44,700 bases of DNA from Escherichia phage vb_EcoS_bov11C2 (MT884012.2), one strand, 5' to 3'; positions 24,037 to 43,307 are shown, numbered from the stretch's first letter. Notes: generated by a model from the letters alone, not told the origin. Translations and numbers: made by a program.

Positions 24037-24060
24037 AAGGGGCCGTATGGCCCCTTTTTT
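24037..24060. terminator. bidirectional intrinsic terminator
   Basis: GGGGCC-gtat-GGCCCC then TTTTTT; between convergent fibre gene and the last minus-strand early gene. Confidence 0.7.
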
Positions 24061-24634: not shown

Positions 24635-24676
24635 CGTGTGGTCCTCATTGATGCGGGCCGAAGCCCGCGATTAGAA

Positions 24677-25198: not shown

Positions 25199-25260
25199 GA
25201 TGTTTTCCTTTTTAGTGGAGGCGGTATTGCCCCCGACGTGATTAAGATACTGCAACCAAC

Positions 25261-25731: not shown

Positions 25732-25952
25732 TTCAACTCCTCGATCAGATTCATACGAACAACACGGGCCGAAAAAGCGTCACACACAAGATGACAACTG
25801 GCGGTCATTACAAGCCAGCCGGTAAGGTGCATGCCAAGCAATTGCTCCGGGCGACTGACCCGCCGCACTTTGTTCTCCCTCGGGTTAATTTGGTAGCGTT
25901 TAACAATTTCGTCCACGACGCGCATACTGCGGTCAACGACTAAGATATTCAT
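25728..25952 (-). CDS. hypothetical protein
   Basis: ATG 25952 in frame with track ORF 25728..25961; overlaps the Dam gene end by about 20 nt. Confidence 0.35.
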   Translation of the reverse strand: MNILVVDRSMRVVDEIVKRYQINPRENKVRRVSRPEQLLGMHLTGWLVMTASCHLVCDAFSARVVRMNLIEELK

Positions 25953-26418
25953 GTAGCTCACTCTCGCTCATTATTTCAATTTGTGCGCTGCCGATGGGTG
26001 GCGCTTCGTCAAAGATTATCAATTGCTGGCACTTGTTATTGCTCGGACCGACTTCGCCGGTGACAGCGTGAATGAATCTAATCCGCCAGTCCAGAAGAAT
26101 TATCAGGTTTGCAGTCTTCCGGGCAAGCCTCGCCCACTTCGTCGACGTGTCCTGATTCAGTAGCATGACAGTCCGGCGACCGTGCGCTGCGCATTCCACC
26201 CACGGCAGCGGGTCGGAATACGGCGGATTGCACCACTTCCACCCTTTCAACTCGGACCAGTCCACATCAAGCGCGCTGTGTTCCGCCGTGAAGTAACGCG
26301 GTAGCAGATGGTTTGCATCGCTTGCCGCCATATCGTAACGGAATCGGTACTTCCGACGAAGCGGTTTAAATAAAGCTGGCGGCGTGCGCCAGCTATCTTT
26401 TTGCTCACTCTTCTGCAT
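25933..26418 (-). CDS. DNA N6-adenine methyltransferase (phage Dam-like)
   Basis: WRTPPALF ... DMAASDANHL ... WCNPPYSD (NPPY catalytic motif); 161 aa, size typical of small phage Dam-type enzymes. Confidence 0.7.
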   Translation of the reverse strand: MQKSEQKDSWRTPPALFKPLRRKYRFRYDMAASDANHLLPRYFTAEHSALDVDWSELKGWKWCNPPYSDPLPWVECAAHGRRTVMLLNQDTSTKWARLARKTANLIILLDWRIRFIHAVTGEVGPSNNKCQQLIIFDEAPPIGSAQIEIMSESELHEYLSR

Positions 26419-26863
26419 GATCTGGACCTATTGCGTACAGGGCAATTTTCTTGTCGCTGGACAGAACGCGCCGGACTCGGGCCATATCCGCCGGACCCAG
26501 CGGTCGGCTATCGGAATAGTAGCTGCCGTTCGCACGCCACGCTATCAGCACCAGATCTTTCCGGTCGATCTTAGACTGGCGGCCCTTCGGGCGCACGTAT
26601 TCCTCGGCCCGTTTGCAATGCTCGCGCAGACCTTCGGCAGTGATGCGGTTTAGTGCAACGCTGGTTGTGTATCCGGTGCGCTGCATAATCCCCATCAATT
26701 CGAAAAGCAGTTCGAAGCGCTCCTCTAGCTCCTGGCGCACTTTCTTCTCACCTTCATATAGCGCCTGTTTGGTGTCCGCCAGCGCGTTCGCACGTTCGGC
26801 CTGTTCGCGGGCTTCGAGGCATTGCGCGGCCCAGTATGCTTTTTCTTCTTGTAAAATTTTCAT
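26405..26863 (-). CDS. hypothetical protein
   Basis: RBS GGAGA; 152 aa; coiled-coil-like N-terminus. Confidence 0.5.
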   Translation of the reverse strand: MKILQEEKAYWAAQCLEAREQAERANALADTKQALYEGEKKVRQELEERFELLFELMGIMQRTGYTTSVALNRITAEGLREHCKRAEEYVRPKGRQSKIDRKDLVLIAWRANGSYYSDSRPLGPADMARVRRVLSSDKKIALYAIGPDHAEE

Positions 26864-27106
26864 TTATTTAATCTCCGTAGTGCGAATCTCTTTGCGTGGA
26901 ATAAATTTGCCATCCATCTCCACCCAGCAGACTCCGTATCGCCATTGGGTATTACGTCCTGTTTGCTCGGCATATACGGTCTTGCATCCGTAGCGTTCCG
27001 TGTAGTAAATAGCAGCGGTAGGAACGCAAATACAAACGGCAAACATGAGGGTGAGGATCACCCAAAATCGAAGGTCGCCGTCGTAGTCGAAAAATAATGA
27101 TTTCAT
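26864..27106 (-). CDS. small membrane protein
   Basis: RBS GGAGA 8 nt upstream; one TM helix (FWVILTLMFAVCICVPTAAIYY); 80 aa. Confidence 0.5.
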   Translation of the reverse strand: MKSLFFDYDGDLRFWVILTLMFAVCICVPTAAIYYTERYGCKTVYAEQTGRNTQWRYGVCWVEMDGKFIPRKEIRTTEIK

Positions 27107-27125
27107 CGTGTTGTCTCCAGGTATT

Positions 27126-27151
27126 AAAAAGGGCGTCCAAACCGGACACCC
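27126..27151 (-). terminator. intrinsic terminator overlapping a promoter
   Basis: Minus strand forms an 8-bp stem (one G-U) then UUUUU; lies directly downstream of -10 TATATT (27154-27159) and -35 TTGCAT (27177-27182), which sit in a TGCAACCAAT pair (27161-27170, 27178-27187). Confidence 0.5.
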
Positions 27152-27187
27152 TCAATATAATGCAACCAATATTATTATGCAACCAAT

Positions 27188-27511
27188 TTACGAATAAAAA
27201 TTTGGGTCACGTGCGACGTCTACCAGGTAAAGGTTGCTTATGCGGTTGCCGTAGTGCCCTGGTGTGCGCTGGCGGCACACAACGGCGTAGCCAGGAGGGA
27301 TTGTATTTCCGGTTTCAATAATCCACGCCACACGCGCGCCCGATAGCGTCTTGCCGTTGCATTCGATACGTGTTCCGCCATCGGCAGTGTTAAGGTTGCC
27401 AATCTTGCAGCCTGTGGACTTCAGGCGGATGACGCCAGTCTTACTGTCGTAGGAAAAAAGCTGATTGGTCATTGCCACTGAAAAGTCGATGGCGTCGAAT
27501 GTAGTATTCAT
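27188..27511 (-). CDS. HNH_3/AP2-like domain protein with substituted catalytic positions (putative DNA-binding)
   Basis: LFSYDSKTGVIRLKS ... GARVAWIIETGNTIPPGYAVVCRQRT ... NRISNLYLV fits the HNH_3 pattern from memory, but expected His positions are Ala and Arg/Gln; ATGA overlap with the upstream MTase-like gene. Confidence 0.4.
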   Translation of the reverse strand: MNTTFDAIDFSVAMTNQLFSYDSKTGVIRLKSTGCKIGNLNTADGGTRIECNGKTLSGARVAWIIETGNTIPPGYAVVCRQRTPGHYGNRISNLYLVDVARDPNFYS

Positions 27512-28203
27512 TTTAAATTTTCCTCGTTAACCGCTATCGCGAAGCCGCGCGGAGTGAGCGAGCGGATTAATTTTGTGCGGGCTGATTTACCACCGAGGCG
27601 ACTATACTGTTTCGAGTACCCTTTTTCAACGAAAACAGGTTTCTTCTCTGGCATACGGAAGCCGTTGCCGGTCCATAAGCAGGTCAGCTTCGGATATGAA
27701 TCGCGGGCGTTGATGTATTCCGGGAAGAGCGGGTGTACGTCATCCTCCGGCAGATATCCACCATACTCCCACGGATCAAACGAGTGGTCTGGCTTGCGCC
27801 ACTGGGTGGAAAGCACACTGCGCGGATTCTCAATCATATATGGCACCTCGAAGAAGTCACCCAGGTAGGCGGCGATCTTCGCGGTGCGCACCGCCTTAAG
27901 CTGAAAGGCCGGGTCTTTCGCACGCTTGCGCGGGAAAGCTGGCGCGCCGCTCACTGCCAGATCCGTACACGGAGGGAACGCATAGATGATATCCGGCGTA
28001 CCGAAATCGCCATTCATCGCGCGGTCTACGAAGTCCAGATCGATAAACTCATTGCGATACCGGATTCCGCGGCCATAAATCCGGTAGTCAAGGTACGACC
28101 CGTGATCGGCTTCGGAGTAGTTAAAACAGTAGCACTTATGCCCCATCTCGGCAGCACGCTCAATCATCAAGCCGCTGCCGTCGAACAATGACCAGATTAT
28201 CAT
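27508..28203 (-). CDS. C5-cytosine DNA methyltransferase-like protein
   Basis: Motif order FDGSG (motif I-like), FPPC..LAVSGA (motif IV PC-like), ENP (motif VI ENV-like); only 231 aa so a target-recognition region may be reduced. Confidence 0.45.
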   Translation of the reverse strand: MIIWSLFDGSGLMIERAAEMGHKCYCFNYSEADHGSYLDYRIYGRGIRYRNEFIDLDFVDRAMNGDFGTPDIIYAFPPCTDLAVSGAPAFPRKRAKDPAFQLKAVRTAKIAAYLGDFFEVPYMIENPRSVLSTQWRKPDHSFDPWEYGGYLPEDDVHPLFPEYINARDSYPKLTCLWTGNGFRMPEKKPVFVEKGYSKQYSRLGGKSARTKLIRSLTPRGFAIAVNEENLK

Positions 28204-29624
28204 TTGCGCGCCTTTTTAGCTTTCATGTATTCCATCAAATCGTCCTGAATATCTCGCTTACTGTCACGACGCTCGGCGACCAATTCGTCCAGTGTCCCGC
28301 GCGCCTGGATAATGTAGACGAATACAGGTCTAGGGTGTCCGGCCTGCATCTGGCGAACCGGCCCGATACGTTCAACGATCTGCGAAAAGTGCTCAAAGTT
28401 CCAGGTATCAGAGAAGATTGCCAGGTGATGACCGCCGTCCTGCAAGTTAAGGCCGTGGCCCGCCGATGCCGGGTGTGCAAACATGATGGGGATCTCGCCC
28501 CTGTTCCACGCTTCCATATCCTTATTGCCCTGCTTACCCTTACCCAACGCAACGCCGTGCGGGAATTTCTTCTTGAGACGCGCCAGATCATGCTTGTACT
28601 GGTATGCGACGAGCAACGGTGCGCCGTTCAACTCCTCCACGATACTTTCCAGCGCGTCCAGTTTAGCGTCGTGAATTTTCACCCATTCATCGGTGCGCTC
28701 GCCGTCTTCGTCGACTTTATACACGGCCCCCGAAGCAAGCTGAAGGCACTTAATTGTCTTCGATGCCGCGTTCGCCGCCTCCACTGTTCCGCTTTCCAGT
28801 TCGGCAAATAGCTCGCTTTCAAACTGGTCATAAATCTTGCGCGCTTTCTTCGGCAGGTCCACGACAACCGGAGTATAGATTGGCTTGTCGCACCCGAAGT
28901 ATTCAGCCGCGTCAACGGTTAGGGATACATCAGACAGGCGTTGTTGTATTTCTTTCTCAGAGTTCTTTAGCGGGGCGTGCTGCATAGTGAAGCTGCCAGG
29001 CTTAACAGGCTTGCTAATGAACCAGCGATCGGTAAACGCCTTATAGCTACTGCCGAGGCGTTCGCCACCGTCGACAAACCACGTCTGACCCCATAAGTCT
29101 TTCAGCCCGTTTGGCGCTGGTGTGCCGGTCAGGTTAATCCAGCGCTTGACGTGCTTATGTGCGATCGCCGCCAGTGCGCGTGCGCGCTTACTACCCTGCT
29201 TGCTTCGGTAGCCTTTCAGCTTAGTCGATTCATCGGCAACAACGACCGTAAAGGGCCATGCATCGCCGTAATAGTCAACCAGCCACTCAACCACATCATA
29301 GTTAACACAAACCACGTTAGCGTCGCTCTCAAGCGCTGCGATACGGTCCTTCTCCGGCCCAGTGCCGTCTACGACCAGTAGGGATGAGAACCGCCATTTC
29401 TCCTGCTCCGGGGGCCATGTACCTGACGCGACACGCAGCGGGGCCAGCACCAGTACGCGGTCCTCATGATGGGACAGGACGCCAGTCTGGAACATTTTAT
29501 TCAGCGCCCACATTGTCGCGCCGGTTTTACCGGATCCCATTGTCGCCCAGATATTACATCGCTTATGCTTGAGGATGAACGCGGTTATCAACTTCTGATA
29601 TTCGCGGCGTCGGAATCGTGCCAT
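28200..29624 (-). CDS. SNF2-family helicase
   Basis: ATG 29624; Walker A MGSGKT, DExx-like VVADEST, motif III LTGTPAPN, C-terminal helicase domain. Confidence 0.8.
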   Translation of the reverse strand: MARFRRREYQKLITAFILKHKRCNIWATMGSGKTGATMWALNKMFQTGVLSHHEDRVLVLAPLRVASGTWPPEQEKWRFSSLLVVDGTGPEKDRIAALESDANVVCVNYDVVEWLVDYYGDAWPFTVVVADESTKLKGYRSKQGSKRARALAAIAHKHVKRWINLTGTPAPNGLKDLWGQTWFVDGGERLGSSYKAFTDRWFISKPVKPGSFTMQHAPLKNSEKEIQQRLSDVSLTVDAAEYFGCDKPIYTPVVVDLPKKARKIYDQFESELFAELESGTVEAANAASKTIKCLQLASGAVYKVDEDGERTDEWVKIHDAKLDALESIVEELNGAPLLVAYQYKHDLARLKKKFPHGVALGKGKQGNKDMEAWNRGEIPIMFAHPASAGHGLNLQDGGHHLAIFSDTWNFEHFSQIVERIGPVRQMQAGHPRPVFVYIIQARGTLDELVAERRDSKRDIQDDLMEYMKAKKARK

Positions 29625-29628
29625 TTCT

Positions 29629-29847
29629 TTATTCCGCCTTTTTCCAGACTTCGGTTTCACTGTTCCAGTTCCTTTTTGTAGCGTCGTAGTTGGTGGCGTG
29701 TCCGATGTGCACACCGGTAGCCCGGAAGCTCTTAAATTTTTGCCAGCACACCGTCAACGGCAGCGGATCATTCATGCCCGCAATAAACCATACGCGATCG
29801 CCCGGTTTACATTCGCCCAGCTTGGTGAGTCGGTAATGTTCTTTCAT
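29629..29847 (-). CDS. hypothetical protein
   Basis: ATG 29847 with RBS GGGAGA; 72 aa. Confidence 0.4.
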   Translation of the reverse strand: MKEHYRLTKLGECKPGDRVWFIAGMNDPLPLTVCWQKFKSFRATGVHIGHATNYDATKRNWNSETEVWKKAE

Positions 29848-29890
29848 CGTCATGTCTCCCAAAAATGGCGGGACAAGCCCGCCGTATTAA

Positions 29891-30064
29891 TTATTTTTGT
29901 TCTGCACGGTAGCGGCGCTGCCGTTCGCGCTCTTTCTTATTGCGGCACGATTTGCACTCTGCCCGATGCCCGTCTGGACTGCGCGCAGTTTTACCGGTGT
30001 ATTTGTGGAACTGGGATAGCGGCTTGACACAGCCGCAATTACTACAACGTTTTTCTTCAATCAT
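29891..30064 (-). CDS. small zinc-ribbon protein
   Basis: ATG 30064 with RBS GAGGA; CSNCGC ... CKSCRNK (two CxxC pairs); 57 aa; promoter-like element with motif variants at 30108-30129. Confidence 0.4.
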   Translation of the reverse strand: MIEEKRCSNCGCVKPLSQFHKYTGKTARSPDGHRAECKSCRNKKERERQRRYRAEQK

Positions 30065-30104
30065 CTCTAAAATCCTCGATATGGCTAACCGGCACACTAT
30101 ACCG

Positions 30105-30383
30105 CTATGCGACCAATTCAGCAACCAATAAATCGCAGTCGGATATGTTGTCGATAACGCGAACGTCAGCACCGCGGCGGGCCATTCGCTCATGTTCACG
30201 TACCTGGTGCGGCTTCGGTTTTCCTCCGGGGCGCTTCACTTCGACGAACACTATTTTGCCGTTGATGATAATAATCAGGTCGGGCGCACCCGCGCGCCCC
30301 TCCCATGCCAGTTTTCGGCAGAATCCGCCGACCTCTTTCACCCGTTTCATCAGGTGACTTTGAATCTTGCCTTCCGGTGTCAT
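30105..30383 (-). CDS. VRR-NUC-like nuclease
   Basis: ATG 30383 overlapping the polymerase stop; GAPDLIIIINGKIVFVEVKRPGG ... Q pattern (PD ... E-V-K). Confidence 0.55.
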   Translation of the reverse strand: MTPEGKIQSHLMKRVKEVGGFCRKLAWEGRAGAPDLIIIINGKIVFVEVKRPGGKPKPHQVREHERMARRGADVRVIDNISDCDLLVAELVA

Positions 30384-32674
30384 CACTTCCTGTACCTGTA
30401 CATGATGTCGCCTTCGGCGGCAAGTGGGAAGCCTTTCGCCCAAACAGGCAGGTCGCACATCAGCGCGCACAACTCCTCGGTTGTGTAGTCGTCAGTATCC
30501 GGCACTTCGGTTATCAGTTCATCGTGTACGGACAGTACGATCTCATATCCCGCAGCTTCAACGCCAGGCATGGACCATGCGAGGATATCGCGACACAGCG
30601 CCTGTACGATGTTTTCCGTGAGTTTGCCGCCGTAGGTGTACTGGAAGCCCCACTGGCGCGTCGTCTGATTCTCACCCTGATATTTAATGCGGGTGCTGGT
30701 GCGCTTCTTGCCGGTGTCTTCGTCAATCTCGGTCGTGACAGACAGCCCGATGCCTGGGTAGCTCATGATGCGCCCCGACGGCAACTCAATTTTCAACCAC
30801 CACCCCGCGGCGTTCGGGTCGTCGCGCTCCTCGTCGAAGGTTGGGTCGTGCTTCGCCTTCGTGCGCACAATCTTGAGCGCTTTCCTACCGTCCGGGCGAA
30901 CGTTAGCGCCCGCCCAGTATGCTTTGCCCGGATTGCGGATTGCGCACAACACCGCGTCCTCAAGCTCGGCCCAAAAGGCTACCGTCTTCGGGTGAGCCTC
31001 ACGCCACATACGTTTGATCGCGTCACAGGTAAGCCATACGTTTTTCGGCAGTATGTAGGTTGGGCGCTCATCCTTCTTGCCAGGCTTCGGCGGGCGCTTA
31101 GCTTCGTTAATGCGGGCGTACTCATAACCGCGTTTCGCCGCCGCCCAAATGTGATCCGGGAATGTACCCTTCATCACGTCCGCCATAGTGTAAAGGTCGA
31201 GGCCCAGGTTTTTAGCGAACTGCAAGAACGCCGCGACGCCGCCACCATAGCCCAGTCCCAATTCACACGCCTTTCCGATCTGGCGTAAGTCTTTGCGGTT
31301 GGCTTTGATGTAATCCGGGTCAAGGCCGAACATCTTACCGGCAGTCTCGCAGTAAATATCGCGGCCCGCCTTAAACACCATGAGCGCTGTTTTCTCGCCC
31401 GCGATCCAGGCAAGTCCACGCCCTTCCACGTTGGAGTAGTCCGCTACGACAAACTTCTTGCCCTTAGCCGGGATAATGCACCCGCGAACGGTCGAGGCTG
31501 TTAGCTTAGATATGTCATACGCCCAGTGCGCGGTCCCGCGTAACAGGGAATTGATGCCGTTGGTGAGCATGTGCGACCGGACCCAAAAAGCAACGTCGCT
31601 CTCGCCTTCGCGGCGCTTAATCTTCCCTTCGTGATCGTCGCTATACTCGCCGCGTGCCAGGTTTTGAGGCTGGAAGCCTTTACCCGCCCAGCGCAGCGTG
31701 CGCTTTGCGCCACCATACTGAAGACACCCACGGCGGCGACCGTCGGCAGACAGGCCATTAACGAGCGGATTGTACTTAGTCGATGCCGTTGATGACGCGC
31801 CGAGGCGCATTTCGATAAGCGCTTTGCCTTCGTCGGGGAAGTCCGGGTCTTCAAGCAGGTCGTTAAGTGTGGATTTCTGCGCGTTGTGGATTGTGAACGC
31901 CGGGGCGATATCACGCAGGATTGGCAGGAAGTCATTGCCTGTCAGTTTACCACCAAATCGCTCCCAGGCTTCCTCCTTCAATTCTTCCTTATGCGCCTGC
32001 ACCGCTTTGATCGCGGCGTTCGCCAGGTCAACGTCCACATAGAAGCCGCGGTCGTTGATCAACTGGTCGATAAGCAGGATTTCATCTTCCTTCGGGGTAT
32101 TACCCCAGTCCGGTATGCGCCAGTAGACCTCCCGCATCGCGATAATATCCAGCGCGGCATATCGCAGAAATTTGGCCCATTCTTCAGGGTGAGTCTCGCG
32201 AGTGTAGCGGCGTATTTTGTAGGTCTTAGGGGTAGGCTTACAGAATCGTTTGATCAGCGCCTTGCCTGCCTTATCCTTCGCGTGCTCTGCGTCAACGCCC
32301 AGCACCTGACACTGCATATCGAGGCTACCCGGCAGCGCGTGCCGAAAGGCCATAATCATGGTATCTTCGATCTGGCTTACCGGCAGGTCGATTCCCCACT
32401 TCTCACGGATAACCAGGCGGTCAAACAGGAGGCCGTTAGCCATCACGATTTTTGCTTTCTTGCGGGATACCTGACGGAGCGCCTTGCGCAGTTCACGCGG
32501 CATTGTTGGGGATTCAGTGGCATCCCATGTCTGCACGCGGCCTTCGTCGATGGCGTAGGTGCAAATCATAATCTCGGTGGTTGGGTGCTCTGCGTAGGCG
32601 TACGCCCCTACTTTCTTCAGGTCAACCCCGCTGAATGTCTCGGTGTCGAGAAACAAGCGTTCGAAGTCTTTCAT
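30383..32674 (-). CDS. DNA polymerase, family A, with 3'-5' exonuclease domain
   Basis: Exo I motif FLDTETFS; motif B RQIGKACELGLGYGGG (R-x3-K-x6-YG); motif C VHDELI; 763 aa. Confidence 0.9.
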   Translation of the reverse strand: MKDFERLFLDTETFSGVDLKKVGAYAYAEHPTTEIMICTYAIDEGRVQTWDATESPTMPRELRKALRQVSRKKAKIVMANGLLFDRLVIREKWGIDLPVSQIEDTMIMAFRHALPGSLDMQCQVLGVDAEHAKDKAGKALIKRFCKPTPKTYKIRRYTRETHPEEWAKFLRYAALDIIAMREVYWRIPDWGNTPKEDEILLIDQLINDRGFYVDVDLANAAIKAVQAHKEELKEEAWERFGGKLTGNDFLPILRDIAPAFTIHNAQKSTLNDLLEDPDFPDEGKALIEMRLGASSTASTKYNPLVNGLSADGRRRGCLQYGGAKRTLRWAGKGFQPQNLARGEYSDDHEGKIKRREGESDVAFWVRSHMLTNGINSLLRGTAHWAYDISKLTASTVRGCIIPAKGKKFVVADYSNVEGRGLAWIAGEKTALMVFKAGRDIYCETAGKMFGLDPDYIKANRKDLRQIGKACELGLGYGGGVAAFLQFAKNLGLDLYTMADVMKGTFPDHIWAAAKRGYEYARINEAKRPPKPGKKDERPTYILPKNVWLTCDAIKRMWREAHPKTVAFWAELEDAVLCAIRNPGKAYWAGANVRPDGRKALKIVRTKAKHDPTFDEERDDPNAAGWWLKIELPSGRIMSYPGIGLSVTTEIDEDTGKKRTSTRIKYQGENQTTRQWGFQYTYGGKLTENIVQALCRDILAWSMPGVEAAGYEIVLSVHDELITEVPDTDDYTTEELCALMCDLPVWAKGFPLAAEGDIMYRYRK

Positions 32675-32841
32675 TGCTTTATCCTCACTACGGCGTCAGC
32701 GCTGCCGATCATGGAGAAGATGCCGTCGGACAGGGCGATCTCTTCTCCATTGTTGCGAATCTCGGCAACTGTGAAATACTCGCCCAGCAATTTGGACCAT
32801 ACCTGCATTCCGACTTTTACTTCGCTGGCTTTAATACGCAT
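32671..32841 (-). CDS. small hypothetical protein (56 aa)
   Basis: Not in the ORF track (under 60 aa); ATG 32841, stop overlaps the polymerase ATG; fills the gap between SSB terminator and polymerase. Confidence 0.3.
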   Translation of the reverse strand: MRIKASEVKVGMQVWSKLLGEYFTVAEIRNNGEEIALSDGIFSMIGSADAVVRIKQ

Positions 32842-32856
32842 TTTTCATTGTCCTAT

Positions 32857-32880
32857 TAAAAAGCCCGCATTAAGCGGGCT
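32857..32880 (-). terminator. intrinsic terminator after SSB gene
   Basis: Minus strand AGCCCGC-loop-GCGGGCT followed by U-run. Confidence 0.6.
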
Positions 32881-32899
32881 TGAATAGTGGGCTTTGCCC

Positions 32900-33682
32900 T
32901 TAACGGCGGCGACGTTTACGTGGCGCTTCGTCTTCGTCGTCGTCCTCATCTTCGTCATCGCGTGGCTTACGACGTTTGCGAGGTTTTTCATCTTCCTCAT
33001 CGTCGTCGTCATCGCGGCGCTTGGATTTCTTGGACTTGCGCGGCTTGTCATCTTCATCATCGTCATCACGACGTTTTGACTTTTTGGACTTGCGCGGTGC
33101 TTCGTCTTCGTCGTCGTTGTCCAGGTCTTCGTCGGAACATGAAGACCCGCCACCTCCGAAGGCTTCGCCGTCTTCACGGAATCGCAGACCCAGCAAGCCA
33201 GCCCCGAGACCCTTGCCGTTGGTATTGTTCCACGCCCAGATATCAAGGGACACGTTGCAATAACAACCGGAGTAGATCTCCTGGCCTTCAATCTCGTCGC
33301 CGTCGATGGTCAGACCTTGTTCGGTCTGCTTCTCGCCGAGTGACGTTTGAATGATAGGCTGTTTGAACGATTTGGCGTTGATATACAACATGCCTTCGAA
33401 TTCTTCGGTCACTTCGTCACGCTCGTCACCGTCGCGGACTGCGCATTCCTTAGAATCCTGGGCGTAGTGGCGGTCCATCCACTTATCGGCATTCTTCTCG
33501 GATTTCAGCTTGTCGGTGAGCACTGCGCGCGCTGCCGCTTCCACTTTGTCCACCTGCGGATCTTCTTTATCCAGAAGAATCACGGCACGGTATGCCGGTT
33601 TTTGTCCATCCTGTTTAGGGGTATCACGTTCCCAGATTTTCAGGAAGCATACGCGCACATTTTTCAGGTTGACTTTAGCCAT
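32900..33682 (-). CDS. ssDNA-binding protein (T7 gp2.5-like / DUF2815-like) with mixed-charge repeat tail
   Basis: ATG 33682 with RBS GAGGAA; N-terminus MAKVNLKNVRVCF typical of this family from memory; C-terminal 90 aa of alternating PRKSKKSKRR and DDDDEDD blocks. Confidence 0.55.
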   Translation of the reverse strand: MAKVNLKNVRVCFLKIWERDTPKQDGQKPAYRAVILLDKEDPQVDKVEAAARAVLTDKLKSEKNADKWMDRHYAQDSKECAVRDGDERDEVTEEFEGMLYINAKSFKQPIIQTSLGEKQTEQGLTIDGDEIEGQEIYSGCYCNVSLDIWAWNNTNGKGLGAGLLGLRFREDGEAFGGGGSSCSDEDLDNDDEDEAPRKSKKSKRRDDDDEDDKPRKSKKSKRRDDDDDEEDEKPRKRRKPRDDEDEDDDEDEAPRKRRRR

Positions 33683-33772
33683 TTTCCAATTCCTCATTTT
33701 CACATGTATCGGGGTTATTGGAAGCCACCCCGTTCGGCTTGGTTGCCAATTTACTTGGTTGCGCCTGAGCGG

Positions 33773-34015
33773 TCAAGCATTTTCATTAAAAAGATTTCTG
33801 GTCACGTAGTTGGTCGCGTTCTCGATCCAGCTTAACGGCGGGCGGTTGATGTTCTTCTCCACCCAATCGACGGCAGCTTCGCTATAGCCGTCATCCAGCC
33901 AGCGGGTCGGATGTCGAATCATCCACGCCACCATTAACACGCCTTGCACGCAATGCAGGATAAAGCCCAGCGCGCCGAGCAAAAACATCAATAAGATTGC
34001 GAATACTTTATTCAT
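33773..34015 (-). CDS. small membrane protein
   Basis: N-terminal TM helix AILLMFLLGALGFIL; 80 aa; overlaps the exonuclease stop. Confidence 0.45.
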   Translation of the reverse strand: MNKVFAILLMFLLGALGFILHCVQGVLMVAWMIRHPTRWLDDGYSEAAVDWVEKNINRPPLSWIENATNYVTRNLFNENA

Positions 34016-35438
34016 TACTTAAGTCCTCGTCGGTAGCTTCAGACCACGCAGGGCGCGGGTCGTCGATTGGTGCTAATACCGGTTTTGCCGGTGCGCGCGT
34101 GATTTTATCACACAACTTCGCCCACACTTTCGGCTTCTCGTCCTTCAATACCTTCTCGGCATCAGTAGGGCTGAGTAATGTTTCTTTGTACATAACATCG
34201 CGCTTGATCCGGGCCTTCGTGAAGATCTCAATCACTTCGCTCTCGTCCGCCCACTTGCGGATTCCTTCCTTACCGGCAACCATCTTGAGGCCCAGCGATT
34301 CGCCATCACCCGCCATTACGGCCTTGAACACCGCGGACTCGATAGCCTTGATGTGCTGGCGCATTGCGTCAAGACCTTCATATGCCTTGCGCAGTTCCGC
34401 CGCGCTCATAGCGCCGGGGGCCGCTTCTTTCTTGCCACGCTTCGCACGTCGTGCCGCTTTGCGGGCTTCGCGGGCCATATTGCGGTCGTGATTGGCGCAT
34501 TCTTCCTCTGTCGCAATACTCACGTCGTCGCCCAGGTCTTCGTCTGTTGCCGTTGGTTGGGTCATCGTGTCGATTGCGGCCTTAGCGCGGGCGCTACACT
34601 GATCCGCAAATCGGCACCACTGGCACGCATCAACGCTCGGTCGGAAGTCGGCACGGGTGAGTCCCTTTTTGCCGCGGGCGTACGCCTCCAGGGCGGCGAT
34701 AGCACGCTTGGACGCAAACTTCGCGAATATCTCCAGGGCTTCTACCGAAATATCCCACTCCGACGCCCCGCCGCAATACGGCTGGAAGATAACCAGGCGC
34801 ACGGTCGTGATGTCGTACATGGATTGCAGCTTGCGCAGCAGGCCGAGCGCATACAGCATAAGCTGTTTGTTTTCTTTCGCCTCGACCTTATGCCGCCCCG
34901 TCTTCAGGTCGCCAACAATCAGCATGTACGTGCCGTCGGTCTTCTTCATGACCATGACCATATCGGCAGTACCGAACGTCTTAACCCGGTTGCCGTCGAT
35001 CTCGAAGCCAGAGTGTAGGACGCGGGTCAGATCGGTGCGCATCTCAAGCTGGACAAACTCCGCCACTTCGAGGAGCGGTCGCCAGTGGTCGACGTATGCG
35101 TCGCACTGTTTCACCATATCGTCGTTGACCAGTACGCCGCCTTTCGGCGCTTTCGGGTGTGCCTTTACCGGTCCCTTTCCTTCGTTCTCGACGTAGCACC
35201 CTTTGTACGTCTTCGCGGTTATCAGCTTCTCACCGGCGATAATGCGGTTTAGCACCACCTCAGATACGGTGTGCATACTCGTACCGTTAATCGCGGCTTG
35301 CCCGGATTCGTTCGGGATATCTTTTTCCACCACCAGGGCGGCTGGGCAACCCATCCATTTTTTAGCTCCGGATGGGCCGAGTAAAGAGTGTTCCGTGTTG
35401 CTACCGGATTGCGTTTTACGTTTTGGTTTAATCGTCAT
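34008..35438 (-). CDS. PD-(D/E)XK exonuclease, Cas4/RecB-like with Fe-S cysteine motif
   Basis: GDLKTGRHKVEAKENKQLMLYALG (D ... E-x-K ... Q..Y) and C-x2-C-x5-C (CQWCRFADQC) plus an N-terminal Cys; 476 aa. Confidence 0.7.
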   Translation of the reverse strand: MTIKPKRKTQSGSNTEHSLLGPSGAKKWMGCPAALVVEKDIPNESGQAAINGTSMHTVSEVVLNRIIAGEKLITAKTYKGCYVENEGKGPVKAHPKAPKGGVLVNDDMVKQCDAYVDHWRPLLEVAEFVQLEMRTDLTRVLHSGFEIDGNRVKTFGTADMVMVMKKTDGTYMLIVGDLKTGRHKVEAKENKQLMLYALGLLRKLQSMYDITTVRLVIFQPYCGGASEWDISVEALEIFAKFASKRAIAALEAYARGKKGLTRADFRPSVDACQWCRFADQCSARAKAAIDTMTQPTATDEDLGDDVSIATEEECANHDRNMAREARKAARRAKRGKKEAAPGAMSAAELRKAYEGLDAMRQHIKAIESAVFKAVMAGDGESLGLKMVAGKEGIRKWADESEVIEIFTKARIKRDVMYKETLLSPTDAEKVLKDEKPKVWAKLCDKITRAPAKPVLAPIDDPRPAWSEATDEDLSNE

Positions 35439-35626
35439 TATTCCACCCTTGAAAATTGAGCAATGTAATAGTCGTGTTTAACATTGGCCCGCTTCGCGGC
35501 TTCGTTCATGGTCGATGCCAGTTCTCGGGCTTGCGTCCAGCAGCAATTCCAGTTTTGATTCATAACAATTTCTGGTTGCTCGTCGCCGGTGATACGGCAA
35601 CGAAATAAAACAAAGAATATAGCCAT
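35438..35626 (-). CDS. hypothetical protein
   Basis: 62 aa ORF whose ATG directly follows the upstream stop and whose stop overlaps the exonuclease ATG; no recognisable motif. Confidence 0.35.
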   Translation of the reverse strand: MAIFFVLFRCRITGDEQPEIVMNQNWNCCWTQARELASTMNEAAKRANVKHDYYIAQFSRVE

Positions 35627-35878
35627 TTATTTCGTCTCCCAGCGGTCGATTGTTTTTGCTTCGGATGCAACTGCGAAGCGAACATATTCCAGATTGGAAT
35701 CCGCCCAAATATAAAAGTCGGGGTTAGTAAAGGTGGTGCGCTTAATTTGCGCGGGGGTATTGCGGCGTTTATCTATTACGGCAACGCGTGACTGAAAGCT
35801 GCCGATGCGTTCGAATAGCCAATAGTACGGGCGCTGGTCGCGGGAGTCCACCGCCTCGATTAGCGTGAAGCGTGCCAT
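35627..35878 (-). CDS. hypothetical protein
   Basis: ATG 35878 with RBS GAGGA 8 nt upstream; 83 aa. Confidence 0.45.
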   Translation of the reverse strand: MARFTLIEAVDSRDQRPYYWLFERIGSFQSRVAVIDKRRNTPAQIKRTTFTNPDFYIWADSNLEYVRFAVASEAKTIDRWETK

Positions 35879-35891
35879 TGTCTCGTCCTCT

Positions 35892-35918
35892 AAAAAGAGG
35901 CCCGCAGATTAGCGGGCC
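35892..35918 (-). terminator. intrinsic terminator after first early-left gene
   Basis: Minus strand GGCCCGC-loop-GCGGGCC followed by UCUUUUU; between gene 35927-36445 and gene 35627-35878. Confidence 0.55.
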
Positions 35919-35926
35919 GGAATATA

Positions 35927-36445
35927 TTAATCTTCCAGTTCGAAATAGGTTTCGACGATTTCTTTTAACTCTGTGTGGAAGTCTTCGACGTCGTCATCTT
36001 CCAGCTTGGCGATTGATTTGATCTCGAACGATTCCAGCAGGTCGTCGAATTCGTCGTTCGCGTCGTCGTCATCACCCCCGGCAATAATAGCGGCATACTG
36101 TTTGATCTCGTCGCGCATCTCTGCCAGCGGATCGGCATCTTTCTTACCTTTGCCTTTCGCCGGGGCTTTTTTACCCTTCGCAGGTTTTTCGTCTTCGGCT
36201 TCTTCATCGTCGTCATCTTCTACGACTTCTTTTTTGGACTTACCTTTCGCCGGGGCTTTTTTAGATTTAGCCGGTTTTTCGTCTTCGGCTTCATCGTCGC
36301 CATCTTCGACAACTTCTTTTTTCGCCTTAGACGGCTTCTTGTCTTCCTGTTTACCAACGGCAGCGCCAACGGTTTCATAATGCTTTGCAATGGTTTCCAG
36401 TGCTACTACGCCGCGAGTGATCAGGTTTACGATTTGCTCAAACAT
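35927..36445 (-). CDS. highly charged tandem-repeat protein, first gene of the leftward early operon
   Basis: ATG 36445 with RBS GGAG; two 29-aa tandem repeats (KKEVVEDGDDEAEDEKPAKSKKAPAKGKS) and acidic C-terminus. Confidence 0.5.
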   Translation of the reverse strand: MFEQIVNLITRGVVALETIAKHYETVGAAVGKQEDKKPSKAKKEVVEDGDDEAEDEKPAKSKKAPAKGKSKKEVVEDDDDEEAEDEKPAKGKKAPAKGKGKKDADPLAEMRDEIKQYAAIIAGGDDDDANDEFDDLLESFEIKSIAKLEDDDVEDFHTELKEIVETYFELED

Positions 36446-36641
36446 GGTATATCTCCGATTGGTTAAGTTTAGGTGTCGGCAGTTAACTTCGTCGGTGGCC
36501 TTAACATATTGCCAGGTTACGCGTTCTCCCGTTCGGGTAGTGGACCTGGTTATATAATCACGGTTGGGAATCCTGACACTTCGATCCGGCCCCTGCGTTG
36601 CCCCTCTCCAGTTTGCGTCCTGCATCCTGTCGACGGGGTGA

Positions 36642-36671
36642 ATAATAGATTGGTTGCAGGATGGGTGTCAA
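36642..36671 (-). promoter_or_regulatory. strong sigma70-like early-left promoter
   Basis: Minus strand TTGACA (36666-36671), 18-nt spacer containing TGCAACCAAT, TATTAT (36642-36647); about 190-nt leader to ATG 36445. Confidence 0.55.
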
Positions 36672-36682
36672 CAACTAATTTC

Positions 36683-36742
36683 AAAAAAAAAAGCGCCGAG
36701 GCAAAATGCGACGGCGCTAACCAATAAGAGACAATGAGACGG
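36683..36742 (-). ncRNA. candidate small RNA (orphan promoter plus strong terminator)
   Basis: Minus-strand terminator AGCGCCG-13nt loop-CGGCGCT followed by U10 (36683-36718) with no upstream gene on that strand; TTGAAA-N16-TAATAA promoter at 36749-36776. Confidence 0.25.
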
Positions 36743-36788
36743 GAATTATTATTACACGCGTGCGCGCCCGTTTCAATATCCAAAGGAT

Positions 36789-36834
36789 TTGACACCGTGC
36801 AGTTTTGGGTGTAGTTTCGTTGGTCATTAACCAA
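36789..36834 (+). promoter_or_regulatory. early-right promoter with inverted repeat at the start site
   Basis: TTGACA (36789-36794), 17-nt spacer, TAGTTT (36812-36817), then TTGGTcattaACCAA (36820-36834) before RBS GAGGG and ATG 36849. Confidence 0.45.
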
Positions 36835-36848
36835 CTGAGGGCAGAGCA

Positions 36849-37178
36849 ATGAATGTAAACGACGCAATCGAAATGTTAACGAAGACTGTTTGCAGTGAGA
36901 CAAGCCGGTCATGGGCATACACCGATGCCGTAGGGGCTGTGTTATTTGAAATCGAACGACTGCGCAGTATCGAAAAAGAATTGCGCGCCAGGCTGGAACT
37001 ACTCAACGGTACAGCAGCAAGCAAGCTGCAAAAACACAATGAAGAAATGGAAGAATACAAAAAGCAGGTTATCCGTTTGCGCGCCGAGGGCAAATCCTGG
37101 GCGATGATTGCTGAGTTGACCGGAATTAATCAGAGCACAGTTCGCTCCTGGGTACGCAATAATAAAACTTCTAAGTAA
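36849..37178 (+). CDS. HTH DNA-binding protein, candidate early regulator
   Basis: C-terminal helix-turn-helix SWAMIAELTGINQSTVRSWVRN; first gene of the rightward operon. Confidence 0.55.
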   Translation: MNVNDAIEMLTKTVCSETSRSWAYTDAVGAVLFEIERLRSIEKELRARLELLNGTAASKLQKHNEEMEEYKKQVIRLRAEGKSWAMIAELTGINQSTVRSWVRNNKTSK

Positions 37179-37188: not shown

Positions 37189-39453
37189 ATGAGCTTAATT
37201 AAATTCGCTGTAACAAAACCCGCTAAAAAAGGCGAAAAAGCCAGGGCGGAAAACTTCCAGATGACGACCGATGAGTTTTTCGAATTTATCAAAGATGCGA
37301 AAGAAATATCCTCGGTGCATATCAACAAGACGGAAGATAAAGCCGAGTATGCGCGCCGCAAGCGTAAGGCCGATGGCATCGTGGCGTATACCAGTGACGG
37401 ATTGCGTCGTAAGACCAGTGCGGTGGACCGCTCGATCCTGTTCTTTGATATTGACCGCACCGACACCCGCACCCTGCGCCGCTGCCGTAAGGCGTTCATC
37501 GACGCGGGTCTGGAACACGTATTTCACACCACCACCGGCGACCGCCACCCGCTGAAGGGCGGCACGCGTTGCGCCCGTTTCCTGGTGCTCACTGACAAGC
37601 CTGTACCGGCTGAAGACCTGGGCCGCGTACAATATGCACTATTACACCAACTGGGTCTGTCAGATGTGGACTTCGACGATTGCACGAAAGACACAAACCG
37701 CCTGATGTACCTGCCACACCAGCAGTCTGTTATTAAGTGCCACTATGGCAAGCGCGCCAATGTGCGTCGTCTACTCCGTCGGGCGGACAAGCTGGGGGTG
37801 GAAAAAGAGGAAGTACGCCGCGAGCTTACCCAGGGCGACGACGCAGTGGCAGACGGCATTCTGGACTGGTGCTTCCAGGCCGGATTCGAGGAGTTATCTT
37901 CTGGTCGTGGTTATGAAGTGCCGTGTCCTAACGAACATCTGCACAGCGGCGAAGGGTCGACGGCTATCATGGTCAAGGATGGTGAGATCCGTTTCAAGTG
38001 TATGCACACTGGCAACGAGTGTTGCTCGGAACTGAACAGACACCAGCACCTGGCGCTACGTCTTATCGGGATCCCGGACCACCTGAACGTCGAACCGCAC
38101 AACATGTCACGTAAGCAAATCGCCGCCATCCTCCCAGGACTGGACGACGAGGAAGTGGAATCATGCTATGCGCATATCGTTGATGCGGTCGGAGACGGCG
38201 ACGAGTACGGCGTATGTACCGACGCTGACCTGGATAACGAACCGGTCGCACTGTTCAGTAAGCACGACCCTATCATCGAGGGGTTGATTAACTTTAAATC
38301 GACCTGGTATATGGCTGGCGAGTCTAACATCGGTAAATCGTTCTACGTGCTGGGCCAAATGGGCGCTGTTGCCGCGGGTATTCCGTTCGGCGGTGCGAAG
38401 GTCGTCCAGTCTCATTGCTTCTATTTCGACGCGGAAGGTGGCGAAGCCTCCAACCAGCGTAAGGAAGCATTGCAGATCAAATATGAGCACGACCTGGACA
38501 AGCTGCACATTATCGATCTGCAATCACGCGGCTGGGATATCACCAGCAAGTCCGGCTTGCGTGAAGTTATCAGCTTCATCAACCGCACCGCTAACGGCGA
38601 ACCGGTTGGCCTGGTGGCGTTCGACTCACTCAACCAGACGGTTGCGTTGCGGTCCGCCGATGCCAAACCGTTCGACGAGAACAACGCCAGCGATATGGGC
38701 GAAGTGGTCAAAGCGCTGAAGGCCATCGCGGAAAATACAGGCGGCAGCGCGGGCGTCATCCACCACCCGGCGAAGGGTGCAAACGGCAGCAGATCTCCCC
38801 GTGGGTCCGGTGCGCTGCATGGTGCTGTCGATTCTGCGTTCTTCCTGGAGCAACCAGACGACAACCAGCCCGGACAACTGAACCTGTATCACGAGAAGGC
38901 ACGTAACGGCATCAAGCAAGCGCCGCGCGGCTTCGTCCTGCTCAAGTGCAAGGTGAAGGTGGATCTCCGCAAGTCCGAGGCGTTCGAGGCACACCAGTCC
39001 ACCAGCACAGGGCCGGACTTCGGCGATGTAGTTGCCGGTTGGGACGTCAAGCCAATTGCATCCACGCCACGCGACGAGACTCTTTACCTCGTACCGGTCG
39101 CCCTGGCACCGTTCGCCATCGAACAGGCGAAGGCCGCGGGCAAGGCCGCAGTTAAGGAGGAGAACGCCGCAGGACCGCGCAACGAAAAAGAGAAAGTGCT
39201 TTATGCGGCACTGGAAAAACTGATGGAAGATAACCCGGACCATACCGGATTCAGTAAATCGGCAATTGTACGCCAGGCGGGATTGGCAAAAGGCGGCACA
39301 TCGACGAAGGCAATCGACGATATGGTCGAGCGCGGCGTGCTCGGTTTTTATACAGATCCGCACACCGGGGCCATCTATGGGTCGTCAAATATCGTCATCA
39401 AAACGAATATACCCATCACGCTTTCGGCGACCGATGACGACCTGAAAGATTAA
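37189..39453 (+). CDS. primase-helicase (AEP-type primase-polymerase N-domain fused to RecA/DnaB-like ATPase)
   Basis: N-terminal hydrophobic DxD motif LFFDIDRTD; central Walker A GESNIGKS and Walker B VGLVAFDSLNQ; 754 aa. Confidence 0.7.
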   Translation: MSLIKFAVTKPAKKGEKARAENFQMTTDEFFEFIKDAKEISSVHINKTEDKAEYARRKRKADGIVAYTSDGLRRKTSAVDRSILFFDIDRTDTRTLRRCRKAFIDAGLEHVFHTTTGDRHPLKGGTRCARFLVLTDKPVPAEDLGRVQYALLHQLGLSDVDFDDCTKDTNRLMYLPHQQSVIKCHYGKRANVRRLLRRADKLGVEKEEVRRELTQGDDAVADGILDWCFQAGFEELSSGRGYEVPCPNEHLHSGEGSTAIMVKDGEIRFKCMHTGNECCSELNRHQHLALRLIGIPDHLNVEPHNMSRKQIAAILPGLDDEEVESCYAHIVDAVGDGDEYGVCTDADLDNEPVALFSKHDPIIEGLINFKSTWYMAGESNIGKSFYVLGQMGAVAAGIPFGGAKVVQSHCFYFDAEGGEASNQRKEALQIKYEHDLDKLHIIDLQSRGWDITSKSGLREVISFINRTANGEPVGLVAFDSLNQTVALRSADAKPFDENNASDMGEVVKALKAIAENTGGSAGVIHHPAKGANGSRSPRGSGALHGAVDSAFFLEQPDDNQPGQLNLYHEKARNGIKQAPRGFVLLKCKVKVDLRKSEAFEAHQSTSTGPDFGDVVAGWDVKPIASTPRDETLYLVPVALAPFAIEQAKAAGKAAVKEENAAGPRNEKEKVLYAALEKLMEDNPDHTGFSKSAIVRQAGLAKGGTSTKAIDDMVERGVLGFYTDPHTGAIYGSSNIVIKTNIPITLSATDDDLKD

Positions 39454-39548
39454 AATTTGCGCGCATTGGTTGCCGTTTTAAGTGTTTTTATCTGGTCGTA
39501 TTGGTTGCCGTGTAGTGTAGATATAATGAATAGTTATGCATTGAAACT

Positions 39549-39716
39549 GCATAAACTAAGCGGGACAAAAAGCGGGACAAACAAGGGGCGGGACAAAGCG
39601 GGACAGCACCCCCGTCCCGCCCCGGATGACGCGGCTTCCAGAGGAGCGGGACAGCGGGACAGCACCCCAGTCTTTCAGACTAGACGGGGGTCAACGGCCC
39701 CCCTCGTCTGAGACTG
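39549..39716. repeat. GGGACA iteron array R2 (copy of R1 units)
   Basis: 70-bp unit 39549-39618 and 52-bp hairpin unit 39665-39716 each differ by 1 nt from R1; six GGGACA copies. Confidence 0.85.
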
Positions 39717-39876
39717 AATAAAATCCGGGGATTGCAAAACACACGGCAGCATGATGCGAAGTGCGGTCGCGGATGAACTAGGCAACCAATGCTAGTAGCA
39801 TTATGCTGAGTGAAAAATGCGGTTTGCAGTTGCAGCAGATAGCGATCAACTTTTTCATGCGCGTGATTAATATTGG

Positions 39877-39921
39877 TTGCATCCGCCCAGGCACCCTGCT
39901 ATATTGGTTGCACACCAACAG
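39877..39921 (+). promoter_or_regulatory. sigma70-like promoter with ATTGGTTGCA pair and operator-like inverted repeat
   Basis: TTGCAT (39877-39882), 17-nt spacer, TATATT (39900-39905), TTGGTTGCACACCAA at the predicted start, then RBS AGGAGG and ATG 39933. Confidence 0.5.
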
Positions 39922-39932
39922 GAGGGCGGAAC

Positions 39933-40112
39933 ATGAAAACCGAAATGGTTAATAAGCGCGAAATCAAGATCGGCGATACGGTAGTCCACAACGGGGAGCT
40001 TCGCACTGTGTGCAAGCGAGCGTTTAGCATCGATGGATTTATGGGCCTGCTACTTTGGGGCGACAGCTATCGTTTAGGGCATAAACTGGTTGAGAGGGTT
40101 ACGGAACTATGA
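39933..40112 (+). CDS. hypothetical protein
   Basis: ATG 39933 with RBS AGGAGG; 59 aa. Confidence 0.45.
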   Translation: MKTEMVNKREIKIGDTVVHNGELRTVCKRAFSIDGFMGLLLWGDSYRLGHKLVERVTEL

Positions 40113-40444: not shown

Positions 40445-40714
40445 ATGAGCCGTAGACGAGCCAAACAGCTTTCGTGGCATATTCCCCTGCATTGCATACG
40501 AATATGGGCTAAGAATGCGACTGAGGGCGATTCTGTATTATGGTGTTATCGCGATGACGTTAAGCCGTTAACGCAGACTCGCTACTTGCACCAGTTCGCA
40601 GCACAACACGATTTCAGGGTGCGGACTTCCTTGCAACCAATGGGAATACGTATTACATTACGCCGAAAGCCAGCCATTGAGCGGGTAGGCAAACACTGGA
40701 GACTGAGCAAATGA
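40445..40714 (+). CDS. hypothetical protein
   Basis: 89 aa ORF in the early-right operon series. Confidence 0.45.
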   Translation: MSRRRAKQLSWHIPLHCIRIWAKNATEGDSVLWCYRDDVKPLTQTRYLHQFAAQHDFRVRTSLQPMGIRITLRRKPAIERVGKHWRLSK

Positions 40715-43101: not shown

Positions 43102-43307
43102 ATTGCTTGACTCGCAACCAACACAGGGGCCATACTGCAACCAATCAACTGGAGGAGTAATCAAGATGGCACGTAAAGATATTTGGGTATTAGCGATCTG
43201 GACCACCGCGGCTTTTATCGGCATGGTTATTTGCGAATTGATATAGCCCGCCGCCATACGGACCGTGGTATATTGTCCACGGTCCACTAATCAGGAATTA
43301 ATTAAAT

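Follow-up and report, generated by a model that had tools for sequence, protein, structure and literature searches.

Two separated iteron-hairpin sites of Dhillonvirus genomes as a candidate replication origin and second cis-acting site, with a winged-helix primase-helicase as putative reader

Classical plasmid iterons are 17-22 bp long. In the satellite phage P4, studied by Ziegelin, Lanka, Calendar and colleagues, the alpha protein combines a Toprim-type primase, a superfamily 3 helicase and a C-terminal winged-helix origin-binding domain, and binds octamer iterons; ori and crr are two separated cis sites about 4.5 kb apart, one of which lies close to the initiator gene. The oriV of RSF1010 (IncQ) depends on three separate proteins, RepA, RepB' and RepC, and contains 20-bp iterons and, within one origin, two opposed hairpins that serve as single-strand initiation signals, such IncQ-type signals being about 40 nt long. 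The origin of lambda is a single site inside the O gene, and the O protein, which has no enzymatic domains, recruits the host helicase via P. Here we describe a pair of sites in Dhillonviruses whose repeated words, of the CGGGACA type, measure 7-8 bp and thus fall short of the iterons of plasmids, from which they also differ in their less regular spacing.

The window, that is the whole stretch of DNA analyzed (44,700 nt, Escherichia phage vb_EcoS_bov11C2, MT884012.2), is a complete Dhillonvirus genome of an HK578/SO-1-like siphovirus. It holds two repeat-bearing non-coding regions, A and B, whose existence is already on record: the GenBank entry of phage SO-1 (GQ502199 / NC_013600, 2009) marks both intervals as repeat regions A and B, and its annotators described repeats of direct, inverted and palindromic type that resemble each other between the two regions, and gave a 'possible' function. 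That annotation is a note without word-level analysis, cross-lineage comparison or a reader protein; a literature search on Dhillonvirus origins, iterons, genome ends or regions A and B found no paper analyzing them. In our preferred reading, to which we assign a probability of roughly one half, A and B would together form an iteron origin beside its initiator gene and a second cis site, in the manner of P4 ori and crr but with unrelated protein domains.

The gene layout of the window is given in Table 1. The tail assembly chaperone reading continues in the -1 frame to about position 11873 in a three-frame translation, as the usual G/GT frameshift pair; this extension is named DUF1799 in relatives. 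The 385 bp of non-coding DNA between the frameshift product and the tape-measure gene are unusual. In the related Guernseyvirinae (Hafnia phage TS33, a Kagunavirus), where the primase-helicases are 33-44% identical, no region A was found, and the Guernseyvirinae checked had no two-site repeats analogous to A and B; chaperone and tape-measure genes directly adjoin each other there. The cumulative GC skew changes direction at about 36-37 kb and about 24 kb, at the flips of gene orientation and not at A or B. Since the skew follows gene orientation it is uninformative for the origin, and it was dropped as an indicator.

Several other repeats of the window were noted in passing. Two terminator-like palindromes, AAGGGGCC-ATAT-GGCCCCTTTTTTA, are 94% identical and lie 2.9 kb apart (21118-21148 and 24031-24061). 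One ends a long tail gene (17672-21118) and the other ends the tail-fibre gene (22389-24032), and two minus-strand ORFs at 21146-22398 are enclosed between them. The tail-fibre gene (547 aa) carries a perfect 37-nt repeat with a 42-nt period at 22993-23071, which gives an in-frame duplication of 14 residues. Low-complexity coding repeats were seen at 8844-8968, where a plus-strand gene has an (EP)n-like run with GAACCAGAGCCG repeats, and at 32916-33134 and 36133-36312, where two minus-strand genes have acidic Asp/Glu-rich repeats. One of the latter is the gene of the Gp2.5-like single-strand-binding protein (32900-33703).

Regions A and B share one module. Its parts follow in the order TTATGCA-N7-TGCATAA, four direct CGGGACA words, an inverted GTCCC, a site-specific GC-rich spacer, two further CGGGACA words and a 49-nt hairpin (Table 1). 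In the whole genome 17 of 26 GGGACA words fall in the two regions, and the GGGAC words, 7 in region B and 14 in region A, form the sole two clusters genome-wide. The AT-rich stretch of region B is modest in both length (100 bp) and composition. From the last iteron to the hairpin the distance is 7 nt, and an AEP primase and a RepA-type helicase are predicted in the same replicon. The arms of the site A palindromes differ by uncompensated substitutions and an indel, both here and in phage WFI. Because these changes are uncompensated, what is conserved at the palindromes is the word GGGAC and not base pairing.

Table 1. Features of the window and of related loci; positions refer to the window unless a locus is named.
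Feature	Position	Strand	Basis or remark
Terminase, head and tail genes	56 to ~24,000	+	
Terminase genes	56-2013		
Tail assembly chaperone gene	11182-11559		Pfam Phage_TAC_4
Region A, 385 bp non-coding, from end of tail-chaperone frameshift product (~11873) to tape-measure start (12259)	11874-12258	+	Three-frame translation, Phage_TAC_4, SO-1 'region A'
Two GGGAC palindromes, site A only	11878-11911, 11957-11989		Each followed by a TGCATAA word
Direct-repeat units of region A, 78-bp spacing	11886-11954, 11964-12032		Hold the GGGAC palindromes
Site A iteron unit, 71 nt	12021-12091	+	70/71 identical to 39548-39618
Two extra CGGGACA iterons, site A	12121-12136	+	GGGAC starts 12122, 12131
Site A hairpin	12142-12190	+	Differs from site B hairpin only at loop position 12169
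TGATACAAT, extended -10-like element	12214-12222	+	~40 nt 5' of tape-measure start; read from sequence; also in LM40P1, L060
Replication genes	~24,000 to 36,900	-	
Small HTH protein, 754-aa primase-helicase, small genes, lysis genes, terminase again (circular map)	from 36,849	+	
Small HTH protein, 109 aa, HK578 gp45 homologue	36849-37178	+	Pfam HTH_23/Sigma70_r4_2; co-transcribed with primase-helicase
Primase-helicase, 754 aa	37189-39453	+	Pfam, PHROGs, conserved columns, AlphaFold2/Foldseek on two fragments
Predicted domains of primase-helicase	Residues: AEP primase ~1-230, zinc finger C246-C279, RepA-like helicase (AAA_25) 357-531, winged helix ~661-740		
Coding sequence of predicted C-terminal winged helix (residues 661-740)	39169-39408	+	<160 bp from first iteron
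Region B, 479 bp intergenic, primase-helicase gene to next gene (SO-1 gp49 homologue)	39454-39932	+	ORF list, record annotation, SO-1 'repeat_region, region B'
AT-rich stretch directly 5' of iterons	39454-39553		60-72% AT versus 46% genome
Two TTGGTTGC motifs in AT-rich stretch	39466-39473, 39501-39508		
Inverted repeat TTATGCA-N7-TGCATAA	39534-39554		
Site B iteron unit, 71 nt	39548-39618	+	TGCATAA, four direct CGGGACA, one inverted GTCCC
Direct words of site B unit	GGGAC starts 39562, 39574, 39590, 39600		Spacing 12, 16, 10
Inverted GTCCC of site B unit	39614-39618		
GC-rich spacer specific to site B	39619-39646	+	Unlike site A spacer, kept among B copies
Two extra CGGGACA iterons before site B hairpin	39647-39661	+	GGGAC starts 39648, 39656
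Site B hairpin, 49 nt, imperfect	39668-39716	+	CAGTCTTTCAGACTAGACGGGGG-loop-CCCCCCTCGTCTGAGACTG
TTGGTTGC groups	6228-6249, 25252-25271, 27162-27186, 33739-33762, 39466-39508, 39873-39911, 43114-43144		
TTGGTTGC singles	22391, 30121, 36650, 39782, 40633		
Word CGGGACA	L038, L042, L061		
Word TGTGGCA	L039, L040		
Word TGTGCCA	L041		
Word GGTGCCA	L044, L064		
Word of GGGAT type			Lineage with 46% identical helicase
GATTTATAAGGAG-like motif	L040:6700-6730, L041:2860-2890, L044:5030-5050, L064:2800-2815 and 2935-2950, L062:4995-5010		

A repeat search and direct comparison confirmed what a preliminary description of this DNA had reported, namely two units that are nearly identical between the sites with one mismatch each. 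The iteron units agree at 70 of 71 positions (T12060 versus G39587), the start given earlier for the site B copy (39549) being one base off. The hairpin units, 12139-12190 and 39665-39716, agree at 51 of 52 (T12169 versus C39695). The 46-47 nt between the units, described as diverged, are indeed largely unlike save for the two further CGGGACA words. Among 14 genomes holding both copies, the A and B iteron units are 79-94% identical, and the near-identity seen here is a trait of this lineage, high within that range. In the same 14 genomes the iteron unit is 85-87% identical between A and B, 87% among A copies and 92% among B copies, and the hairpin follows the same pattern. The corresponding values for the spacer are 57%, 90% and 82%. 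The likeness of A and B, which roughly equals that of each site to its counterparts elsewhere, is thus confined to the words and the hairpin, which argues for selection on those parts and not for a recent duplication of the whole stretch.

Recent gene conversion had been proposed as one source of the near-identity, and it receives modest support. The segment immediately preceding the hairpin exists in two alternative forms, and each form occurs at both sites, in different genomes (16 IMG/VR contigs). In the 14 genomes A-B identity was 87.4% within genomes and 85.2% between genomes (permutation p = 0.005). These sequence comparisons suggest, at a modest level, that exchange between sites A and B also occurs.

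The module was found at 357 places in 158 phage records, about two per genome, and in 16 IMG/VR contigs of ~44 kb; all of these are Dhillonvirus-like, and the 71-nt iteron unit is kept in all A and B copies of the 16 contigs. Neither 5,426 complete E. coli genomes nor 72,556 plasmids gave a match to it, and a host REP-like or plasmid element was rejected on this ground. Both copies are kept at the same two positions in the 158 phage records. We consider it highly improbable that the module is a selfish or accidental duplication without a function of its own, for instance a miniature mobile element or a tract left by recent gene conversion. The near-identity of the copies in this genome, the modest signal of concerted evolution and the PHROGs label 'transposase' on the neighbouring small HTH protein would fit such an origin. 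Against it stand the fixed positions, which hold in lineages down to 46% helicase identity, the restriction of conservation to words and hairpin with a site-specific spacer, and the lack of copies elsewhere. The 109-aa HTH protein, moreover, has no catalytic domain (Pfam). The distribution largely refutes this explanation, and word swaps found at both sites contradict it.

Region B differs in length between genomes because of extra tandem units at its start: in some Dhillonviruses one or two additional copies of a TTGGTTGCC plus palindrome GATATGGGAATTCCCATATC unit are present, as in phage PNS1 (MK138527; L065:250-370) and phage rolling (L037:3455-3510). Extra module copies in PNS1 were thereby ruled out, the added length being a tandem duplication of the upstream TTGGTTGCC unit.

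Several database records, and metagenome contigs as well, have one of their ends within A or B (MZ234029 and MK373791 start there; OX460974 and IMGVR_UViG_3300045988_009799 end there). Assembly breaks at the repeat or hairpin are the likeliest cause, with real physical ends as a possible alternative. Such ends have a bearing on whether A and B serve some other DNA transaction carried out by one protein at two places, for instance recombination-dependent helicase loading, synapsis or looping, or activity as a hotspot of packaging or recombination, in which case they would not strictly be origins. A single multimeric protein could bridge two direct repeats separated by 17 and 27 kb on the circular map, and genes for an exonuclease and a Gp2.5-like annealing protein (PHROGs) are present in the phage. 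However, the contig ends are more simply explained as assembly breaks, one contig carrying the same 27 nt at both of its ends, and the terminase genes and the usual pac location are far off, with nothing specific to packaging at either site. We regard this explanation as improbable.

To compare more distant relatives, contigs were fetched via primase-helicase homologues of 67-70% identity. All of these contigs retain the region B scaffold, composed of TTGGTTGCC pairs, TTATGCA...TGAATAAATAAGC, an array of words, a spacer, two further words and the hairpin. What changes from lineage to lineage is the word (Table 1), and the lineage words are the top words of each region in an unbiased k-mer count. 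Wherever both sites could be read, A and B carry the same word. A Logan contig of 27.6 kb (ERR11172925_9173; L039/L060) holds both the tape-measure homologue P0135 and the helicase P0010. It begins within the region A analogue, 215 nt 5' of the tape-measure gene, and stops within the region B analogue, 111 nt past the helicase gene. Its two ends carry one and the same 27-nt stretch of TGTGGCA iterons, which indicates that both sites carry the TGTGGCA word and that the assembler broke at the repeat. The diverged CGGGACA lineage (L061) has a region A analogue with GGGAC words and a hairpin, and where the helicase is only 46% identical, words of the GGGAT type occupy the post-helicase as well as the pre-tape-measure site. 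Comparison of both copies across relatives had been put forward as a check, and its outcome is a repeated word that changes jointly at A and B. The earlier proposal of a shared binding protein is well supported by this joint change, together with a word common to both sites and a spacer specific to each.

Two further features were seen in these lineages. In the diverged CGGGACA lineage two minus-strand genes of unassigned role, preceded by TTGGTTGC motifs, lie between the chaperone genes and the region A analogue (L061:1853-2601), and region A thus doubles as a place where additional genes are inserted. In the non-CGGGACA lineages the spacer between the iteron groups contains a conserved GATTTATAAGGAG-like motif, which is absent from the CGGGACA lineages.

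The gene directly upstream of region B encodes the primase-helicase. AlphaFold2 models of its fragments were built from a 36-sequence alignment. The N-terminus is predicted to adopt an AEP primase-polymerase fold, with the cyanophage S-2L PrimPol as best match (6zp9, E = 1.6e-5). Among the homologues D87xD89 is invariant and H120 nearly so, and the Cys/His columns of a zinc finger follow. The centre is a RepA-like AAA_25 helicase (Pfam); searched by sequence against solved structures, the protein gave only a marginal RepA match (1g8y). For the C-terminus, the model (m394e18260b35) predicts a winged helix of the order H1-S-H2-H3-wing with a core pLDDT of 80-90. All top Foldseek matches of this part are winged-helix DNA binders (linker histones, MarR/MepR, LexA, Rio2), at weak E-values of 0.03-0.25 and probabilities of up to 1.0.

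We then compared domain identities between homologues of the same and of different word classes. The winged helix shows 71.6% versus 56.2%, with ranges that overlap (minimum 59%, maximum 62%) and few independent swaps; the AEP domain shows 70.6% versus 64.2% and the helicase core 80.0% versus 77.2%. The winged helix is thus the domain that best separates same-class from different-class pairs, to which linkage contributes, as it is encoded less than 160 bp from region B. Further support comes from a prediction made for P0009, whose winged helix most resembles that of P0013 (69%), although the AEP domains of the two are only 58% identical. The word class of P0009 was predicted from the winged helix and then confirmed, its contig carrying GGTGCCA like that of P0013. 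On the strength of the predicted fold and these comparisons, we propose that the winged helix of the primase-helicase is probably the iteron reader. Since an AEP primase, a zinc finger, a RepA-like helicase and a DNA-binding domain are predicted in one protein, it may be an all-in-one initiator. The origin or replication-coupled role that had been favoured from the position of region B after the primase-helicase gene is plausible as far as an origin is concerned, and it gains from the way the predicted winged helix tracks the word class. The literature lends indirect support: mutants of HK578 that escape the OLD defence map to the primase-helicase and the promoter of its operon, genes which the authors of that work regard as replication-initiation genes; OLD binds the iteron hairpins of the lambda origin (bioRxiv 10.64898/2026.07.10.737580).

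Other candidate readers were considered. The small HTH protein encoded upstream of the primase-helicase was ruled out as iteron reader, for its HTH segment EGKSWAMIAExTGINxSTVRSWVRN is identical in the four word classes compared (CGGGACA, TGTGGCA, TGTGCCA and GGTGCCA). It probably reads TTGGTTGC, to judge from the equal invariance of that motif, which is unchanged in all lineages with an unchanged small HTH protein. In the distant lineage with the 46% identical helicase (L062), an HTH_3-type protein replaces the small HTH protein and GCTGCCAAC replaces TTGGTTGC. TTGGTTGC occurs 19 times in the window versus about 2 expected, mostly as intergenic pairs, and often as TATATTGGTTGCACACCAACAG directly 5' of a ribosome-binding site and start codon; from this placement it is probably an operator or promoter element. 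The genes just downstream of region B were also rejected as readers, being either not conserved or uncorrelated with the word class. One of the genes beyond region B encodes a small basic protein (40445-40714, 89 aa, phrog_12533), whose homologues in diverged lineages, likewise encoded downstream of region B, share ~30% identity with it (L040:7575-7970 and, in its C-terminal part, L038:12697-13482) and show no correlation with the iteron class.

The hairpin folds strongly in silico. At site B it is present in the minimum-energy fold of a 181-nt stretch (39545-39725; z = -3.4), and alone it reaches about -25 kcal/mol as RNA. As single-stranded DNA the top and bottom strands fold about equally (-12.7 and -13.3 kcal/mol, z of about -3.8). 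All 23 distinct hairpin variants fold alike into one long imperfect hairpin (RNA, -21 to -30 kcal/mol). The single mismatch between the sites falls in the loop, as had been noted, which is an AAU/AAC triloop with RNA parameters and a 5-nt loop with DNA parameters. In the alignment 91.7% of pair cells are paired, versus 29-50% in slid controls, and four pairs have changes on both sides; in diverged lineages the apical stem GGGGG:CCCCC becomes GGGTG:CACCC (L040) or GGGAG:CTCCC (L041). The claimed selection on structure is thus borne out mainly by conservation and by a few compensatory changes, whereas formal covariation is weak, as the stems hardly vary. Folding fits both DNA and RNA, and the structure may matter in either.

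A generic terminator shared with unrelated genomes had been named as the finding that would speak against a specific role. The hairpin has no U-run, the sequence directly 3' of it being AAUAAAAUCC at site B and CAUAAGGUUUGUUUU at site A; no copies are present in host or plasmid sequences, and all phage records with the module are Dhillonvirus-like. A terminator scan of 39300-40100 found no intrinsic terminator, and the sole terminator-like matches were the site A palindromes, on the minus strand. An intrinsic (Rho-independent) terminator was therefore ruled out, given the missing U-run and the empty region B scan. The module had no Rfam match, with only chance-level microRNA-type hits (E above 1). 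A known RNA family or a put/nut-like element was rejected as well, on the Rfam result and the uncompensated arm differences tolerated by the site A palindromes.

The main alternative to the origin reading is that A and B are transcriptional control regions. Their words would bind a phage regulator, which need not be the primase-helicase, that switches or boosts late genes at two operon boundaries, with lysis and head genes after B and tail genes after A, and the hairpin would act in RNA as an attenuator, processing site or stabilizer. Site A lies amid the tail-gene operon, an odd place for an origin, and promoter-like elements stand beside the modules: five TTGGTTGC copies frame region B, and TGATACAAT follows region A. 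Each module has the orientation of the genes beside it and is placed between transcription units. Given this orientation and the adjacent promoter-like elements, a transcriptional role fits these observations equally well. It would also agree with the strong RNA folds, with a canonical terminator that precedes region A in LM40P1 and a terminator annotated inside region A of WFI, and with the pre-tape-measure site being kept even at 46% helicase identity, as expected for tail-gene control. However, no candidate regulator co-varies with the word, the sole nearby HTH protein is invariant, and it is part of a replication protein that tracks the word class. The absence of a U-run after the hairpin, of a terminator in the region B scan and of an Rfam match also speaks against this role. 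So do the uncompensated arm differences at site A, which indicate that the word is read as DNA and not as RNA pairs. We consider transcriptional control a possible but rather unlikely explanation.

The preferred reading, that of an iteron origin beside its initiator gene and a second cis site, suggests the following mechanism. A and B would be two cis-acting sites of the phage's own replicon, with the CGGGACA words as iterons, and the winged-helix tail of the primase-helicase would bind the word arrays at B and at A. Array binding beside the AT-rich stretch could promote melting and helicase loading. The hairpin, once exposed as single-stranded DNA, might provide the AEP domain with a signal for loading or priming. 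Region A would then act as another origin or as an obligatory helper site comparable to crr in P4. Against this reading weigh the position of site A among tail genes, the short and unevenly spaced words, the turns of GC skew away from both sites, the missing region A in the Guernseyvirinae compared, and the physical linkage of the winged helix to region B. A bolder and, in our estimation, doubtful extension is that the winged-helix tail and its own iterons constitute a self-contained, swappable replicon cassette that has to stand at two genome positions simultaneously, with the two-site origin doubling as a replication-coupled switch of late genes. If so, a change of specificity would need coordinated changes at the protein domain, at site B and at site A, and the pre-tape-measure copy would couple helicase loading or initiation to tail-gene expression.

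Dhillonviruses such as HK578, SO-1 and several BASEL phages are common models of phage defence and candidates for biocontrol. A defined origin with an identified reader would help phage engineering and the construction of origin plasmids, and an unmapped origin becomes directly testable. It would also help to interpret defence systems that sense replication intermediates. The lineage-specific words offer a natural swap set for asking how specificity can shift jointly in an initiator and in two remote DNA sites. On the practical side, the module breaks metagenome assemblies, and contigs start and end within it.

Compared with known systems, the lambdoid O protein and its origin would be similar in that the initiator's DNA-binding domain moves with its iterons as one unit and varies among related phages; lambdoid iterons can form hairpins upon DNA melting. 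Unlike lambdoid O, the Dhillonvirus system has two sites outside the gene and predicted enzymatic domains. RSF1010 shares the arrangement of iterons beside an AT-rich stretch followed by a hairpin, as well as a helicase of the AAA_25 family and an AEP-type primase. It differs from the system proposed here, which has one fused protein, words of 7-8 bp and one hairpin per site, both in the same orientation. The closest likeness is to P4, where a primase, a helicase and a C-terminal winged helix (predicted in our case) are likewise joined in one protein, and where the same short iterons occur at two separated cis sites, one near the initiator gene. The predicted AEP primase and RecA-type, RepA-like helicase make the Dhillonvirus protein an analogue and not a member of the P4 family. 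On the circular map 17 and 27 kb separate the two sites, much more than in P4, and each site carries a conserved 49-nt hairpin, for which we know of no counterpart in P4.
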